In this document: positions 32,765 through 45,351 of the stretch, one piece after another | Position numbering within the stretch: the stretch's first letter is position 1 | How the letters are laid out: each line of letters starts with the position of its first letter | Virus record (IMG/VR): IMGVR_UViG_3300020048_000042 | Span: 58,313 to 122,312 of that record | Strand: one strand, 5' to 3' | From: a virus | Length of the DNA: 64,000 nt | Made by a program: the position numbers and the translations under genes | Notes under the pieces: generated by a model | The model's input: the letters and a program-made list of their open reading frames with translations, nothing else | Database searches by the model: none | What the model was told of the DNA's origin: nothing

Positions 32765-32874
32765 TAGTCATGACAGGATTCAAACCTGTGACCTGAACCT
32801 GATGTATTGCATGCCATGGTAGGCTATCCTTTACATTTTCAGAGGTTCCGCTCTATCAGCTGAGCTACATGACT
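32765..32874 (-). tRNA. tRNA-Phe(GAA)-like gene with 35-nt insert at position 37/38
   Basis: Acceptor AGTCATG/CATGACT, D stem GCTC/GAGC, anticodon stem GAACCT/AGGTTC, loop CT-GAA-A|insert|C, variable AGGTC, T stem ACAGG-TTTGAAT-CCTGT; ends A-CTA rather than A-CCA. Confidence 0.7.
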
Positions 32875-35158: not shown

Positions 35159-37021
35159 TTACAACATTACACGCTCTTTTACAAGTTTGTCAATCTTCCG
35201 CGACATGTACCCTACCATTTCACGTGGTAAATCTTTGATGTTTGTCATCTTAATAAAGTGATCAAACATTTGAGAAGAAGGTACAGACTCTTCAATTGCA
35301 ATCTGTATAATTTGGAAACCAAGATTTTGAGCCTTGCTTACCTTAGCACGTGTGTCATTAATTGCAGATTGACCACCATAGTCATATGCAGCAGGTTGAC
35401 CATCAGACAAAACAAACAACAAACCTACGTCTTCTGTCTGTTTTCTGATACGCTTAGCAGTTGCAAGAATCGCGTCACCATCACGGTTGTTAGATCTTGC
35501 TGAAACTGTACCTAAAGCATGAGGTTCTGCGTGAAACTTAGGCTCACGATAGATTCTGATTTGAGTAGTACCATATCCACTTTCGTCTGCTGTATGACCA
35601 TATATGTACAATTGCACATCACGCATACCTTTGAAGACTTCGTTGATAAAGATAGCAGCTTCACGTGCTTTCTGAATTTTACTTCCACACATTGAACCAG
35701 ACTCATCAATAAGAACACCTACACAGATCTTATCAGTTTTTACTTGACCATAACGCTCATACACAGTTGGTACTCTTTGAACTGCCTCAGCAATCTTATT
35801 AGTATCCAATCTACCTGAACGCATAGACTTCATAGCAAACTGATAGTCCTTGCTTTTTCGTGCAAACAATTTCTGTAACACTGCAGCTTTGGTTGTGTCA
35901 ATATTCTTCACACAACGTTGATAAGATGCTTTGTCAGAGTTAGCTTTGATAAAATTAACAGTTCCATCGCTTGCAGAACCTTCAGATTCATAGTCTATGT
36001 GCTTTCTAGCCATTGGCTCTTCTGTCATGTCTTCAACAAAATCCTCAAATGCTGCCATTTCAGCTTCATCACCTTCATCTGCATCGTCTTTACCAAAAGA
36101 GTCTTCCATTAAGTCTTTTGCAAAGTCATTGACTTCACTTTTACTCATGCCTGGCGCACCTGAACCAGGTGATTTTGATTCGTCTTCTCCTTCTCCACCA
36201 TCGTCATCATCTTCACCACCTTCGCCACCACCAGGTGGTTCTTCTTCTTCTTCTACATACTTGTAGACAATGTTTGCAAGACTTGTAGCCATTGACATAC
36301 AATCGTCACTTGTACCAGGTATACCACCATGCTTCTTAAGAAGTCTTTCAATCTGCTTAAGTGGTGCAGCGAACTCTTCAAGTTCTTCTTCAGTCACATT
36401 TGCAGGATATCTCAACATTCTTGTCAGAAGGTCTAGAAGTCTTTTTTGTGGCTTTTCATGCTCACCTAAAGGCTCATAGTTTTTATCATACAAATGGTCT
36501 TTGTATTTCTGCACAAATTTCAAGTAACCAGGTAATCTGTTTGAAAGCTTTTTGTCAATACGCTCAGTATTCAAGACACTAAACATGTAGTCTTTCAAAG
36601 AGAAGTGTTTTCTTGAAGTATCTCTGCAGGTGATAGATTTACCATATTCGCTTGTAGTCTGCATTGATGCAAGTGCAGCGTTTTGTATAGCAGCACCATA
36701 AAATGCATCAAGAATATCAGGATCTGGTTCACGATACTTACCTTCCTCATCCTTTAACATATGAACAGGAATCTGCAACTGAGTGTTTTTCTTTGGGTCT
36801 CCTGCCTTGTATTCAAAGGTTTTTGGAACTCCAATCACTCTAAACATAGAGCCAATCATCTTTGCAGATACTTGTAAACTGTCTGTGGACTTTGTAAAGA
36901 AAGAAGAGTAATTACTTCTTCCACTATCCCAGTTAAAGAATCTGTTAGTGTTGTCCTTGTAAGTGTAGGATTCTTCTTGTCTTCTGCCAAACCAATCTTT
37001 GGCGTAGTTATTTTTGCTCAT
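35159..37021 (-). CDS. von Willebrand factor A domain protein (CobT/NorD-like)
   Basis: RSGRLD, MIDAS VLIDESGSM, NRDGDAI, VLSDGQP; acidic Gly/Pro linker. Confidence 0.88.
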   Translation of the reverse strand: MSKNNYAKDWFGRRQEESYTYKDNTNRFFNWDSGRSNYSSFFTKSTDSLQVSAKMIGSMFRVIGVPKTFEYKAGDPKKNTQLQIPVHMLKDEEGKYREPDPDILDAFYGAAIQNAALASMQTTSEYGKSITCRDTSRKHFSLKDYMFSVLNTERIDKKLSNRLPGYLKFVQKYKDHLYDKNYEPLGEHEKPQKRLLDLLTRMLRYPANVTEEELEEFAAPLKQIERLLKKHGGIPGTSDDCMSMATSLANIVYKYVEEEEEPPGGGEGGEDDDDGGEGEDESKSPGSGAPGMSKSEVNDFAKDLMEDSFGKDDADEGDEAEMAAFEDFVEDMTEEPMARKHIDYESEGSASDGTVNFIKANSDKASYQRCVKNIDTTKAAVLQKLFARKSKDYQFAMKSMRSGRLDTNKIAEAVQRVPTVYERYGQVKTDKICVGVLIDESGSMCGSKIQKAREAAIFINEVFKGMRDVQLYIYGHTADESGYGTTQIRIYREPKFHAEPHALGTVSARSNNRDGDAILATAKRIRKQTEDVGLLFVLSDGQPAAYDYGGQSAINDTRAKVSKAQNLGFQIIQIAIEESVPSSQMFDHFIKMTNIKDLPREMVGYMSRKIDKLVKERVML

Positions 37022-37050
37022 AAAATTGAGTTAATGATTAATACTAATAG

Positions 37051-37082
37051 AAAAGAGAGAGTATCACAGATGACACTCTCTC
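37051..37082 (-). terminator. hairpin/terminator between ATPase and VWA genes
   Basis: GAGAGAGT/ACTCTCTC inverted repeat with A4 on plus strand. Confidence 0.5.
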
Positions 37083-37115
37083 AGTATTCTACATTGCTGA
37101 TCCTACTACAGCATG

Positions 37116-38402
37116 CTAAAACGCAGATACAATAGAAAGTACCTTGCTACGCTCAGACACGCCAATACCATCTTCAAATAGAGGCATAATAGTAGACAAC
37201 AATGCTTTGTCTACATCAAACCCATCAGCAACTAAGCTAGCTGCTTGAAGTGTGTGACGAACTGAAATCGCAGAAGATAATTCCTGCTCTTTGTACTGCT
37301 TACGTATTTCATTGGAAACACGCACAATTGCAGTTGCAGCTTTTTCCTCAACACCTGTACGAAGCATGATGATTTTAATCTCATCTTCTTGTTGAGGATA
37401 GTCAAGCTCAATAGGAAAGAAACGGTCAAGCAATGCTCTATCTATTGCCTGTGTACCAGAGTACTCAGAACCAATATTAGCAGTTGCAAAGAACACAGTG
37501 TTTTCATTCACTTGAACAGTTCTTTCACCTTCATCGCAAGCGATATCAACAGGCAAATAACGTCTTTTGTCCAAACATGGAAATAAAATGTTATTTGCTG
37601 CAAGTGGTGAACGATTAAGCTCATCTAACAACACAATTCCTCCAGACTTGATATGTCCTACAAAAGGAGCATAATCAAACGCTGAATGACCTTCTTTGTT
37701 GATACGGTGTACACCTAACAAAGCAGATTGAGCATCTTGCACAGTACCCATATCCTGAGTGTGCAAATCTTTACCCATTGCTTTTGCTAAGTGAACCAAG
37801 ATTTCTGTTTTACCAGAACCTGTAGGTCCTACCAACAAAGTATTCTCTCCACGCAATACATTACGCACCATCAAGAACCAGATGTCTGGATCAATGTGGA
37901 ATCCACAATCCTCACGTTTTGGTACTGGATAATGCGCAGCAATTGTACGCTTTAAGTTTGTTCCTGAAGGAATCTCTCCTTCTTCAACTGGCTTAGGTGA
38001 TACCTTAGCATCCCAGTCAAATTTGTAGCCAAATGATGCAAACTGATTTGCCATGTCTTTGACATAATCTACATCATAATCTCCACAGTCTAACATATAG
38101 TCAACTGCAAAGTCACATACCTCTTGAATCTTTGCTTCACCCAATGCAGAGATTGGAAACGCAGATTTTTCAAAGAACATTGCGGTAACATGTTCTTTCA
38201 TTACGTGCAAATGGTCGTCTTCAGGGAAGTCATACTCATCTGCTATGAAAATGGTTCCAAGTGGAAACTTTGCAAACTCAGCAATAGGACCTGTAATTTT
38301 CAAGTCTTCTAAACTACGCGTTAGTTTCTTTTCAAATGCTTGACCTTTTAAAGTCTTAATTTGGTAACTTGTACCTTCAATAATTGATTGCAATAGGATC
38401 AT
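37116..38402 (-). CDS. MoxR-class AAA+ ATPase (CbbQ/NirQ/NorQ/CobS-like) with extra N-terminal domain
   Basis: GPTGSGKT, LLDELNR, FATANIG.EYSGT..IDRALLDRF, ISVRH. Confidence 0.9.
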   Translation of the reverse strand: MILLQSIIEGTSYQIKTLKGQAFEKKLTRSLEDLKITGPIAEFAKFPLGTIFIADEYDFPEDDHLHVMKEHVTAMFFEKSAFPISALGEAKIQEVCDFAVDYMLDCGDYDVDYVKDMANQFASFGYKFDWDAKVSPKPVEEGEIPSGTNLKRTIAAHYPVPKREDCGFHIDPDIWFLMVRNVLRGENTLLVGPTGSGKTEILVHLAKAMGKDLHTQDMGTVQDAQSALLGVHRINKEGHSAFDYAPFVGHIKSGGIVLLDELNRSPLAANNILFPCLDKRRYLPVDIACDEGERTVQVNENTVFFATANIGSEYSGTQAIDRALLDRFFPIELDYPQQEDEIKIIMLRTGVEEKAATAIVRVSNEIRKQYKEQELSSAISVRHTLQAASLVADGFDVDKALLSTIMPLFEDGIGVSERSKVLSIVSAF

Positions 38403-42535: not shown

Positions 42536-42564
42536 AAAAAAAAGAGGTGTATTTCAACCTCTTT
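42536..42564 (-). terminator. intrinsic terminator
   Basis: A-run + AAAGAGGT/ACCTCTTT hairpin. Confidence 0.65.
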
Positions 42565-42591
42565 CTCTACTTCCTACGGTATGACAAAGCT

Positions 42592-42885
42592 CTACTGAGC
42601 TGTTGTTTCATGTGGTTTTAATGCAGTAATTTGATCAACTAGATCATTCACTGCTTTTTCTGACAAGTAACCAATAACATCGTTAGTGATTTCTGTGTCA
42701 TAACAAATCTCCCAATCTGTGTCGTTACTGTACTTAAGCACAGCTAACTCCCACTTTCCTTGCTTACCACCATATGAGAATTGGTGTTGGACAATAGATG
42801 CTCCATATCCATTGTCAGCTTTGTAAAGGTACTGAATACCTGCATTTCTTTCTGTTGACTTAAAAGTCTTAAAATCTGTTGCCAT
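42592..42885 (-). CDS. conserved small phage protein (NGYGAS...SYG...WELAV family)
   Basis: Start ATG 42885 (MATDFKTF); DNGYGASIV..FSYGG..GKWELAVL...DVIGYL. Confidence 0.65.
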   Translation of the reverse strand: MATDFKTFKSTERNAGIQYLYKADNGYGASIVQHQFSYGGKQGKWELAVLKYSNDTDWEICYDTEITNDVIGYLSEKAVNDLVDQITALKPHETTAQ

Positions 42886-43017
42886 GTTGGTTGTTTTTAA
42901 ATGATTTGTCCCCTCTGCACTCAGCATGACGTAACTAGGTTCGTCTTAATGGTCTCCGCTGTCCAAATACTGCTCACCCTTGGGAAGTGAGTTGTGGTGC
43001 ATTAAACAAGTCACCAA

Positions 43018-43299
43018 GTGAATGAAACATATAGATAAAGCTAAAATCAAATACAAAAATAAAGACCTTTCTCTCTGCAAGGGCAAAAGCAAAAACTCAG
43101 ACTTAGTTTGAACATCCAATTGTACACGCATGTACGTAACCTGTATGTCATGTCCTAAGACCTAAAAGAGTTTGAGAGAAAGCGGTGTGGCCAATGGCCT
43201 TTCTGTATATAGTTAGTAAACTATGTTGCTATATCTTTTAAAAATTTCATTCACCTGGCGTAAAGAACAAAGGAATCAGCTTGTGCCTATCCTTTGTTC
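43018..43299 (-). ncRNA. ~240-nt rod-like hairpin plus 10-bp hairpin in 3' region of 43315-44217 gene
   Basis: Nested inverted repeats 43018-27/43245-54, 43033-41/43228-36, 43061-66/43197-202, 43067-75/43174-82, 43110-15/43150-55, apex 43122-43135; separate stem 43265-74/43290-99. Confidence 0.6.
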
Positions 43300-43314
43300 A
43301 CCCAGTAGGTAGTC

Positions 43315-44217
43315 CTAAGACTCCAAAAACATGTCAATGACACTTTGGAATCTAGGATCAACACTGATTCTCAGTGCTGCAGTCTCTTTTGTGAGAGTTT
43401 CGCGTTCAACTTCTGCTTCTTGTTGAGCAGCTCTACGTGCAGATGTCCATGCAGTATAAGCATTGTGATACTCAGAATTGTACTGAGATTCCACTTTGTT
43501 ATACTCATTGAGCATCTCCGCATTAGCTCTAGCAATGCGTGCATTCTCCATAGTCACAAGGTTCTTAACCTTAGCTTTGAAGTAATTCACTCTTTGCTCA
43601 TACTCACGATGAAGCTTTGCCAACTCCTCATGCTTAGAATTAAGCTGAGCAGGAGTGTGATGTTTCACTACTTTGACAGGAGTCTTTTCTCCGTCTTTAA
43701 TAGTAATCCACTCCAAAGAGGCAATCTTAGTGATCTGATCACGTAAGACAGAAAGAATTCCACGCTTGTGGATGAACTGACCAATGTGGGAAGCATAAGC
43801 TTCTTGCTCTAAGTACTCGTTGTACTCAGCATCAGACAGTTGTTTCCAACCCCAATCCTCATCAACAGGATTAAGCGTAGTTATCTCATCAACTTCTACT
43901 CTTATAGGAGCAGGAATGTCATAGACATAACGCATATTCCTAATAGAAGTCAATTCACTATCCTTCGCTTTTAATGCTTCCATTAAAAACGCTTGAGTAG
44001 CGTGTAACTTTGCTTTCTCCATGAGCAACTCATTCACATCAGCAGGAAGAGGCATTCCTTCTTGCTGCTCGTAAGATTCACCTGCAATGGTGATAGACTT
44101 ACTCACGTTGTTCACTGAATCCAGTTGATCAGCAATGTTTTGTGCTCTCTGATTGCATAGGTTGCTAATAGATTGCGCTTGGGACATGCTTAAACCCTTT
44201 GTAGACAAGTTTCTCAT
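43315..44217 (-). CDS. alpha-helical/coiled-coil protein of unknown function flanked by structured RNAs
   Basis: 300-aa ORF (GLSMSQAQSISNLCNQRA...EAYASHIGQFIH...YEQRVNYFKAKVKN...I.VDPRFQ); no catalytic motif recognised. Confidence 0.8.
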   Translation of the reverse strand: MRNLSTKGLSMSQAQSISNLCNQRAQNIADQLDSVNNVSKSITIAGESYEQQEGMPLPADVNELLMEKAKLHATQAFLMEALKAKDSELTSIRNMRYVYDIPAPIRVEVDEITTLNPVDEDWGWKQLSDAEYNEYLEQEAYASHIGQFIHKRGILSVLRDQITKIASLEWITIKDGEKTPVKVVKHHTPAQLNSKHEELAKLHREYEQRVNYFKAKVKNLVTMENARIARANAEMLNEYNKVESQYNSEYHNAYTAWTSARRAAQQEAEVERETLTKETAALRISVDPRFQSVIDMFLES

Positions 44218-44220
44218 AGT

Positions 44221-44880
44221 TCAGTTTTTAGAGATTTATAATTTGATTGAAAAAATTCATTTTGACGACTTGCCTGTGCTAGGAACACAGGACTTTGGGT
44301 TAAATAAGATATGCAATCTTGCAAAAACAAGATTTAAGTAATAGACAAATGTGATACAGTTTCCTACACTGCATTTAGACCGCTGAGTCTTCATTTGAAT
44401 TAAACTGGATTCCACTCCAGTCAGCTAACATTCTCCCAAGTGGAATCTTTGTGGAAGAGAATGGATAATGGCATACCACATATTACTGCTGCGGTCAACA
44501 GGTTCACACTGCCAGATTGCTCTCGTGTATAACACTGCCTAGTTTAAACTAAACTCACATAGCTTTATCAAAACACTATATGTAAAATACCTGATTTTAA
44601 AGTCTGCACTAACTTTGGATTATATCACTGCAAATGATAAATAGCACTGTAAATCTCTTTGCAGGAGAAATACAGAACCCAATAGTAGCCCCACAGGTTT
44701 GTCACTGTTTGCTAACAGTAATGATGGTTAGGTTCTCACCCTAACCTTATCCCCCATTCTGCTATGTTTCAAGACAGACCCAGGGATTGTTCATTATGTA
44801 CTCAGTTGAACTCTGGCCAGTAACTTACTGGATATTTGCCTGGTTAAAGAAAAGGCAACAATACTTCAAAGAAAAAACAG
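44221..44880 (-). ncRNA. ~650-nt hairpin-dense putative large ncRNA / leader
   Basis: No substantial ORF; at least ten stems (e.g. 44273-91, 44315-34, 44405-20, 44429-63, 44540-51, 44704-19, 44726-46, 44817-31), several with GUGAGAA/GUGGAA/GUAGGAA loops on the minus strand. Confidence 0.6.
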
Positions 44881-44881
44881 C

Positions 44882-45208
44882 TTATGATTCTAAAGGATCA
44901 AGAAGCCATTGGAAATCTTTCATTCTTTCTTCTGTAGAAATATAAGGCTCCTTGTAAAAAGCCTCAGACTCTAGTTCAGGATAACCATCTACTTTACGCA
45001 TAGACACAAAGTGATAGTACTCAAACTTACCTACTCTATGTTTGTACATATGCCCATAGTAAGAAAGCTCATTTTGCTCTACTTTGGCAGAGTCATCTTC
45101 TACATCTATAAGAGACGTAAGAGAAGAATAATACTCATCTTTACCAATAGGAAGAACTAGTTCCATGTAGGTAAGTTCTAAGTGTGCTAACATCTGTGCT
45201 TTTGTCAT
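44882..45208 (-). CDS. hypothetical protein
   Basis: 108-aa ORF. Confidence 0.5.
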   Translation of the reverse strand: MTKAQMLAHLELTYMELVLPIGKDEYYSSLTSLIDVEDDSAKVEQNELSYYGHMYKHRVGKFEYYHFVSMRKVDGYPELESEAFYKEPYISTEERMKDFQWLLDPLES

Positions 45209-45351
45209 TGTCTTGAGTGTTTATGTTGTGTATAGCTATCTACTGCACAACTAGGTTGTCAAAAAACTGGTGAAGATTGTTGTCAAAGAAATGTGGTGAT
45301 GGTGAATGACCACCACCACTCACACTCTCTAAACAACTAAAACTCAAGTGA

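Follow-up and report, generated by a model that had tools for sequence, protein, structure and literature searches.

In this article we describe a phage gene for a protein of 300 amino acids (aa) and a structured RNA of about 292 nucleotides (nt), named RNA1, which lies directly downstream of it. The gene occupies positions 43315-44217 and RNA1 positions 43012-43303 on the minus strand, (-), of a 64,000-nt stretch of DNA (hereafter the window), which corresponds to bases 58313-122312 of the 122-kb IMG/VR virus record IMGVR_UViG_3300020048_000042. RNA1 exists as a conserved RNA with a definite fold and strand and is linked exclusively to this gene, and we are highly confident that it is a real RNA functionally tied to it. 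The best explanation, in which our confidence is moderate, is that RNA1 forms a particle with the 300-aa protein. The two are a strictly co-inherited pair without Rfam, Pfam or PHROG family, joining a widespread phage protein family to a covarying RNA of about 300 nt with phased repeats, and no prior description of the pair was found in the literature searched. Cognate RNAs adjacent to genes, such as tracrRNA, omega-RNA, Y RNA and vrRNA, have repeatedly emerged at the centre of new machinery, and this pair is compact (about 1.3 kb), so it is directly testable.

Every gene around the 300-aa locus is carried by the minus strand. A unit bracketed by terminator-like sites at 45293-45319 and 42537-42568 begins with a 108-aa gene, which a long gap separates from the 300-aa gene; a second long gap lies between the latter and a 111-aa gene. 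The stretches poor in open reading frames (ORFs) extend over 664 nt upstream of the 300-aa gene (44218-44881) and 387 nt downstream of it (42928-43314, reaching 42886 if the next gene uses its second ATG). A preliminary description of this DNA had given this layout with correct coordinates, and had proposed that the protein and both of its flanking RNAs form a single module; the downstream RNA proved to be conserved, covarying and tied to the gene, but the inclusion of both flanks in one module did not hold.

RNA1 and its linkage to the preceding gene

When loci were collected through the protein, a sequence profile detected RNA1 in every one that reached far enough beyond the gene, and the downstream RNA is tied to the gene across the whole protein family. 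In these loci RNA1 usually starts 12-45 nt beyond the end of the gene match, and in most of them only 8-25 nt separate it from the stop codon; the conserved RNA starts 8-12 nt after the TAG, in agreement with the early observation of a structure beginning a few nt past the stop. The reverse test, in which a 22-base pattern taken from the RNA only was run on viral contigs, returned 112 loci with both RNA1 and the gene and none with RNA1 alone where the gene had room; the other matches were situated at contig ends (6) or were chance matches of the pattern (7). The covariance model (CM) of RNA1, R1, detected exactly one copy in each of 86 sources. Three distant homologues, with no more than 113-132 bits against the profile of the protein family, also retain RNA1 directly after the stop codon (106 bits in locus L219, E = 1e-9 in L221 and E = 4e-5 in L224).

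The protein genes flanking the pair are mostly unrelated between loci. Since the linkage is kept while the neighbours differ, RNA1 belongs with the preceding gene and not with the following one. In the distant relative L219 the gene just upstream of the 330-aa homologue (291-731) encodes a pyrimidine-dimer excision enzyme (Pyr_excise), another sign of non-conserved neighbours. Four metatranscriptome runs contained no contig over RNA1; one of them had loose-ended pieces at 42948-43034, and these data are uninformative on the expression of RNA1.

In the window RNA1 was delimited by nhmmer at 43004-43307 and scored 226 bits (E = 7e-51) with R1, and no Rfam 15 match, the GOLLD and ROOL models included, was obtained anywhere in 43004-43307 at E <= 10. 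The preliminary description had presented the layout as a candidate undescribed module; the downstream flank has no Rfam family, and the upstream one matches a known family (Hatchet, RF02678; see below). The downstream flank is structured, as claimed: its minimum free energy is -111.8 kcal/mol compared with -87.1 +/- 5.9 kcal/mol for shuffled sequences (z = -4.2; 0 of 100 shuffles equal it). Alignment of the stretch behind the gene from 11 related loci, with proteins 53-98% identical, revealed long invariant blocks and obvious compensatory changes. Of the 50 pairs that RNAalifold predicted from a MAFFT alignment, 45 are supported by compensatory changes. In an alignment of 86 sequences, which was fitted to the CM and hence is biased towards the model structure, 96.5% of the cells are paired and 47 of the 50 pairs have double changes; the MAFFT-based result agrees with it. 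The covariation score of RNA1 is 0.696, against 0.257 after shuffling (none of 500 shuffles reaches the real value) and 0.08-0.15 with the partners slid. The stems of the downstream RNA covary strongly across relatives, in keeping with the preliminary proposal, and an all-against-all covariation search for extra helices or pseudoknots in RNA1 recovered only the modelled helices.

The fold is a multi-helix rod consisting of P1, P2, P3 and P4/5. The P1 hairpin (43265-43299(-)) has a conserved internal loop and a GC-ACAA-GC tip, and all of its 10 + 3 pairs are compensatory. P2, the inverted repeat I6, closes the rod by pairing its 5' strand (43244-43260(-)) with its 3' strand (43012-43028(-)) through 15 pairs, all with double changes and with 97% of cells paired; the rod hairpin recognized earlier is indeed closed by the inverted repeat 43014-43027 / 43245-43258. 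The 5' strand of P3 (CGCUUUCUCUC, 43174-43184(-)) pairs with 43066-43075 in 9 pairs, all with double changes and with 100% of cells paired. Variable hairpins are situated between P2 and P3, and P4/5 has a variable tip. In most relatives a U-rich tail (consensus ACUAUUUUUUU) comes after the 3' strand of P2; this tail may be a terminator and is degenerate in this window.

Among the paired cells of RNA1, G-U/U-G combinations were counted 321 times and A-C/C-A combinations 49 times; therefore the conserved element is an RNA of the gene's strand and not a DNA element. A small ORF was rejected as an explanation of RNA1, where the longest ORF starting with ATG has a median of 17.5 codons and shows no consistent frame or start; the 61-aa ORF of the window (42946-43131) and a phenylalanine-rich frame over the repeat tracts were rejected likewise, their frame and start not being conserved.

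On the 3' side of RNA1 two tracts of short repeats are mostly unpaired. Track 1 (43076-43098(-)) consists of three UUUGNN-type units, GAGUUUUUG CUUUUG CCCUUG CA, with invariant columns. Track 2 (43029-43066(-)) starts with an invariant GGUCUUUG-type motif, continues with about five NNUUU(G/A) units and ends with an invariant CUAUAU. The information per column has a 6-nt period over these tracts, high at UUUG and low at NN, and such phased single-stranded repeats suggest several equivalent binding sites. Tandem Repeats Finder detected no tandem array in 42800-45000. A 10-mer containing the stop codon (GTCCTAAGAC on the plus strand, GUCUUAGGAC as RNA) had been reported to recur in the rod; its two copies are present (43152-43161 and 43312-43321), but no significance could be attached to them, and the 10-mer was rejected as a switch because in 2.2 kb chance alone should produce roughly this much exact 10-mer repetition and the repeat is lost in the 82%-identical relative L003.

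The 300-aa protein family

The protein (pI 5.6) belongs to a family that numbers 2570 homologues when clustered at 90% identity and 744 representatives when clustered at 50%, and its invariant motifs are GLSxSQAQS, WGWxQL, HxGQFIH, GxKTP, HH and HE..A..HR..E..VNYxKxKVKN. Neither Pfam nor PHROG has a family for it, and no Pfam family was found for 10 distant relatives either; Pfam and PHROG searches with the neighbouring genes shed no light on its function, a profile search of the PDB sequences with the protein returned nothing, and no fused domain was found anywhere in the family. The most conserved part of the protein is a basic patch with invariant Lys, Arg and His residues (K178, H186/187, H196, H203, R204 and K214/216/218), which speaks for the pairing with RNA proposed below.

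The AlphaFold 2 model (mean confidence measure pLDDT 84) shows two successive units of helix / beta-hairpin / long helix and, behind them, a coiled-coil hairpin, hence the description of the protein as all-helical was nearly right, apart from the two beta-hairpins. Both halves of the protein share the topology helix / beta-hairpin / helix, the N-terminal half matches the C-terminal half by BLASTP with E = 8e-4, and residues 58-96 share 36% identity with residues 189-227 over 39 positions. The sequence and the model together suggest that the protein arose by an ancient internal duplication.

The only return of Foldseek against PDB and BFVD was an uncharacterised phage homologue. The VIA wide fold search yielded generic helical hairpins only, with a best Z of 6.8 for the whole model and of 8.9 for the central domain (rows of ESCRT-III, PspA and coiled coils), values which fall below the level that is meaningful for helical proteins. 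The ESM Atlas gave unnamed clusters at 0.77-0.80.

The upstream ribozyme, the downstream leader and the phage genome

The upstream flank had been proposed as a second structured RNA of the module. Its overall stability is unremarkable (z = -1.6), yet a real ribozyme lies within it: positions 44589-44725(-) match the hatchet family, Rfam RF02678, over the full model (1-133) with 81.5 bits against a gathering score of 51 (E = 1e-16). The P1-P4 helices and the conserved linker and L2 nucleotides (CAA, CCUGUGGGGC, GUGCAGAC..UUAAAAUCAGG) are present in the alignment to the model, the conserved blocks are invariant across 14 copies, and it is clear that the element belongs to this family. Like the described hatchets (PMC4604424; PMC6561176) it is a full-length member with P1-P4 and the conserved core; unlike them, it is the 5' end of a conserved RNA of about 465 nt, an arrangement of which no description was found in the literature searched. 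The cleavage site of hatchets is the 5' end of P1 (PMC6561176, PMC4604424), and from this the cut is predicted at about 44721-44723. Self-cleavage by this class produces 2',3'-cyclic phosphate and 5'-OH ends.

Alignment with relatives demonstrated that the ribozyme and the following 330 nt or so constitute one conserved unit. This composite RNA (44258-44722(-)) consists of the hatchet, a strain-variable segment and a 3' domain of about 230 nt, rich in invariant positions and ending in the hairpin CCUGUGUUCCUAGCACAGG. Between phages its nucleotide identity reaches 69-87%, compared with only about 53% for the neighbouring protein, the similarity among relatives starts at the predicted cleavage site, and a pattern of the 3' domain, run on viral contigs, had a hatchet just upstream in all 27 copies that it matched. 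In RNA-library contigs of two studies, 23 other letters take the place of the strain-variable segment (44449-44540(-)); L002 lacks the segment, and L003 and L010 have a different one.

The composite RNA is also distributed independently of the 300-aa gene. It abuts the gene only in the close lineage of the window (the window, L002 and L003); elsewhere other genes intervene and it is situated 0.5-2.6 kb upstream of the gene, and in L236 and L237 it occurs without the 300-aa gene in 7-10 kb of downstream DNA. Conversely, the hatchet was not found in five gene-carrying relatives (four complete, the fifth half-complete). Thus the upstream flank is not part of the supposed module but a separate conserved RNA headed by a described family.

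RNA-library contigs from four studies (X15-X18) cover the ribozyme; their ends at 44701-44706 fall some 15-20 nt inside the predicted cut, X15, X16 and X18 being without a loose end there. One similarity break in such contigs falls exactly at 44721, and a 689-nt RNA contig joins the composite RNA, from the ribozyme on, to the 5' part of the 300-aa gene. As DNA carry-over is possible in these libraries, the contig ends and the junction contig hint only weakly that a 5' end lies at the cut and that the ribozyme and the gene are co-transcribed. The natural role of the hatchet class is still unknown (PMC6765202); the window gives it a concrete context, in which the cut would define the 5' end of a conserved phage RNA of about 465 nt.

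On the other side of the gene, the downstream flank of about 390 nt holds more than the rod: positions 42886-43011(-) are situated outside the rod and form the leader of the next gene. The leader contains a hairpin, CUCACUUCCCAAGGGUGAG (42973-42991), with a conserved loop and covariation in L010, and a motif, GAGUGCAGAGGGG (42910-42922), each occurring once in the window. In L010 both precede the 300-aa gene instead, and the hairpin motif is upstream of the gene in many relatives. Because the same motifs precede the 300-aa gene in relatives, we regard 42886-43011 as a movable gene leader that serves the 111-aa gene here; this module of about 120 nt may be a movable promoter or 5' untranslated region (5'-UTR). 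The 111-aa ORF (42592-42927(-), phrog_4074, with the PHROG match starting at residue 24) probably starts at its second ATG, at 42885, since its first 14 codons overlap the conserved leader motif.

The virus record has a completeness rating of 97%, and the genome encodes a family-A-type DNA polymerase, a ribonucleotide reductase, a terminase, a portal and a major head protein. With its portal, those of Leptolyngbya phage Lbo-JY46, of the Cellulophaga phages phi17:2 and phi4:1 and of crAss-like gut phages share 23-31% identity, and the DNA runs containing the stretch are freshwater or lake metagenomes; on these grounds the source is an uncultured freshwater phage, distantly crAss-like. Neither the DNA nor the protein has a match among the INPHARED phages. 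The search of genome contigs matched solely contigs of metagenome-assembled genomes, one of them a phage-like contig of 363 kb, and therefore gave no clue to the host.

Further RNA genes were observed around the homologous gene in relatives, where an RNA-gene island (L009:5519-5933, L009:4265-4452, L011:5491-5879, L007:1147-2403) holds GOLLD (306 bits), a group I intron, a tmRNA and arrays of 6-9 tRNAs within 3 kb. In the window itself a tRNA gene missed by ARAGORN was detected at 32765-32874(-) (Rfam, 51 bits); its anticodon region has 43 nt instead of 7, with an insert of about 36 nt, much too short for a group I intron, beside an apparent CU-GAA-AA loop (Phe-like). An AAA+ (AAA_5 / CbbQ_C) ATPase and a CobT-like vWA protein are encoded at 35159-38402(-), a pair of the MoxR/CobS-CobT type; such pairs are common in large phages.

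Possible function of the pair and comparison with known systems

In the explanation that we prefer, three separate elements would share one minus-strand transcription unit: RNA1 with its protein, the upstream RNA and the leader. The 300-aa gene and RNA1 directly behind it are a co-inherited pair, and RNA1 would most likely be transcribed as a 3' extension of the gene's mRNA, since its distance from the stop codon is short and the P2 stem is followed by a U-tract in most relatives. RNA1 would be the cognate RNA of the 300-aa protein, as the strict two-way linkage and the fixed order have been kept while the surroundings were reshuffled. Several protein subunits might bind the two single-stranded UUUGNN tracts with about 6 nt per site, the covarying helices P1-P5 would position the tracts, and the product would be a ribonucleoprotein particle encoded in an early/middle "RNA island" of the phage. 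The hatchet would cut the transcript at about 44721-44723 and leave an RNA with a 5'-OH, the ribozyme first and then the conserved 3' part of about 330 nt; this composite RNA would be a separate non-coding gene that adjoins the protein gene by chance in this lineage. What we infer here is that the elements are co-transcribed, that the protein physically binds RNA1 and does so at the hexamer tracts, and that the hatchet does cleave itself.

Several points weigh against a particle of protein and RNA1. The protein is acidic overall (pI 5.6-6.4), no recognizable RNA-binding fold was found in its fold searches, and its binding to RNA1 is among the inferred steps. The 86-sequence alignment carries the bias noted above; for track 1 a partial pairing with the A-rich 5' strand is conceivable in some members, but its length is not conserved. 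Furthermore, no terminator-like site follows RNA1 in this window, where the next clear one (42537-42568) is past the following gene, and RNA1 may for this reason be internal to a polycistronic RNA here.

It is unlikely, albeit worth serious consideration, that RNA1 acts only in cis as a large 3'-UTR, serving termination, the blocking of 3'-exonucleases or feedback by the protein or a host factor. The position of RNA1 directly after the stop codon in nearly all loci, the U-rich tail after P2 in most relatives and the lack of a promoter-like site between gene and RNA1 would all suit such an element. However, a stabiliser or terminator would need far less than some 300 nt with phased repeats and numerous unpaired nucleotides that never change, RNA1 persists in loci where an insertion of 180-550 nt, or a small ORF, separates it from the gene (L007, L094, L137), and in the window itself no terminator follows it.

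We consider it rather improbable that RNA1 is an independent RNA acting in trans, either as a sponge for a host protein reading U-rich hexamers or as an RNA-only assembly of the GOLLD/ROOL kind, and adjoins the gene for the sake of transcription only. The RNA-gene islands of relatives, with tRNA arrays, tmRNA, GOLLD and a group I intron, and the acidity of the protein are consistent with it; the adjacency and order kept across the protein family amid reshuffled surroundings argue against it, and dependence on a promoter alone would not demand one particular upstream gene.

The version of the preliminary description, a single system in which the protein binds both flanking RNAs, appears very improbable: both RNAs do abut the gene in the window, L002 and L003, and an RNA-library contig does span the upstream RNA and the gene start, but the composite hatchet RNA lies at a distance in other phages, occurs without the gene in L236 and L237 and is missing from five gene-carrying relatives. 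We give practically no credence to a role of the downstream stretch as DNA (replication origin, packaging site or iterons), because, while short phased T-rich repeats could in principle be DNA binding sites, the helices are maintained by compensatory changes, the G-U wobble is strand-specific and a 6-nt period does not match the repeat of duplex DNA.

Compared with known systems, the proposed pairing of RNA1 with the protein resembles TnpB/Fanzor with omega-RNA and Ro60 with Y RNA, in which a structured RNA is encoded beside its protein partner; the omega-RNA of TnpB starts at or in the 3' end of the gene. Here, too, a structured RNA adjoins the gene of the putative partner and is co-inherited with it. 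Membership in these systems was rejected. No RuvC, TROVE or vWA domain was found in the 300-aa protein by Pfam, nor any Pfam family in the 10 distant relatives; the protein, of 300 aa and helical, is thus no IS200/IS605 TnpB, and no transposon ends were seen at the locus. As for Ro60-Y, RNA1 has no Rfam match to Y RNA or omega-RNA, the window contains no Y RNA match, and the CobT-like vWA protein (35159-37021) gave no match to TROVE. Type III toxin-antitoxin systems have tandem direct repeats of about 30-40 nt upstream of an endoribonuclease toxin gene; a ToxIN-like system was rejected, with no tandem array, the RNA downstream of the gene and no ToxN-like Pfam match. A retron, in which a reverse transcriptase gene adjoins the msr-msd RNA, was excluded by the lack of a reverse transcriptase domain in the 300-aa gene and its neighbours.

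A model for the binding of phased repeats is offered by TRAP (MtrB), an 11-mer beta-sandwich ring which reads (G/U)AG triplets in the trp 5' leader of Bacillus and controls attenuation. There a protein oligomer reads a row of short spaced repeats containing U and G, while here the repeats are UUUGNN, stand 3' of the gene and are embedded in a large fold. GOLLD and ROOL are RNA-only cages of 400-800 nt, orphan structured RNAs of phages and prophages near tRNA genes (PMC5737381; PMC12286853). RNA1 is likewise a large structured phage RNA, and in L009 GOLLD lies 1.6 kb downstream of the homologous gene; however, GOLLD and ROOL have no fixed partner among protein genes, and RNA1 matches neither model.

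The closest analogy for the phased repeats is the recently reported VIPR, in which the phage protein Vipr binds a vrRNA of phased YNNGG repeats that co-purifies with the neighbouring protein (bioRxiv 10.64898/2026.04.26.720920). The vrRNAs have about 100 nt, with 9-16 YNNGG units at a 5-nt period, hypervariable NN and a 3' tail, and Vipr is a RAMP/RRM-core protein with G-loop and thumb (bioRxiv 10.64898/2026.04.26.720920). In both cases a small phage-encoded protein gene is flanked by long non-coding stretches, and a single-stranded run of short phased repeats alternates a conserved motif with a variable dinucleotide. In contrast, RNA1 has about 300 nt and 3 + 5 UUUGNN units at a 6-nt period inside a covarying multi-helix fold, and its NN are not hypervariable: in 65 pairs of RNAs 85-99.5% identical the NN variation was modest and the variable hairpins varied most. 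The 300-aa protein is helical, and its fold-search rows, for the whole model as for the central domain, included no RAMP or Cas chain, a missing match that does not exclude the fold. Membership in VIPR was rejected on the period, the motif, the size of the RNA and the NN hypervariability.

As a speculative extension of the preferred explanation, to which we attach a low probability, RNA1 could be the scaffold or guide of a new phased ribonucleoprotein, in which copies of the duplicated helix / beta-hairpin / helix protein would occupy the UUUGNN tracts with one site per 6 nt, and a target, nucleic acid or protein, would be recognised by the exposed NN dinucleotides or by the filament as a whole. 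If true, such a system for recognition by protein and RNA would parallel VIPR or Cas7 backbones while being built from unrelated parts.

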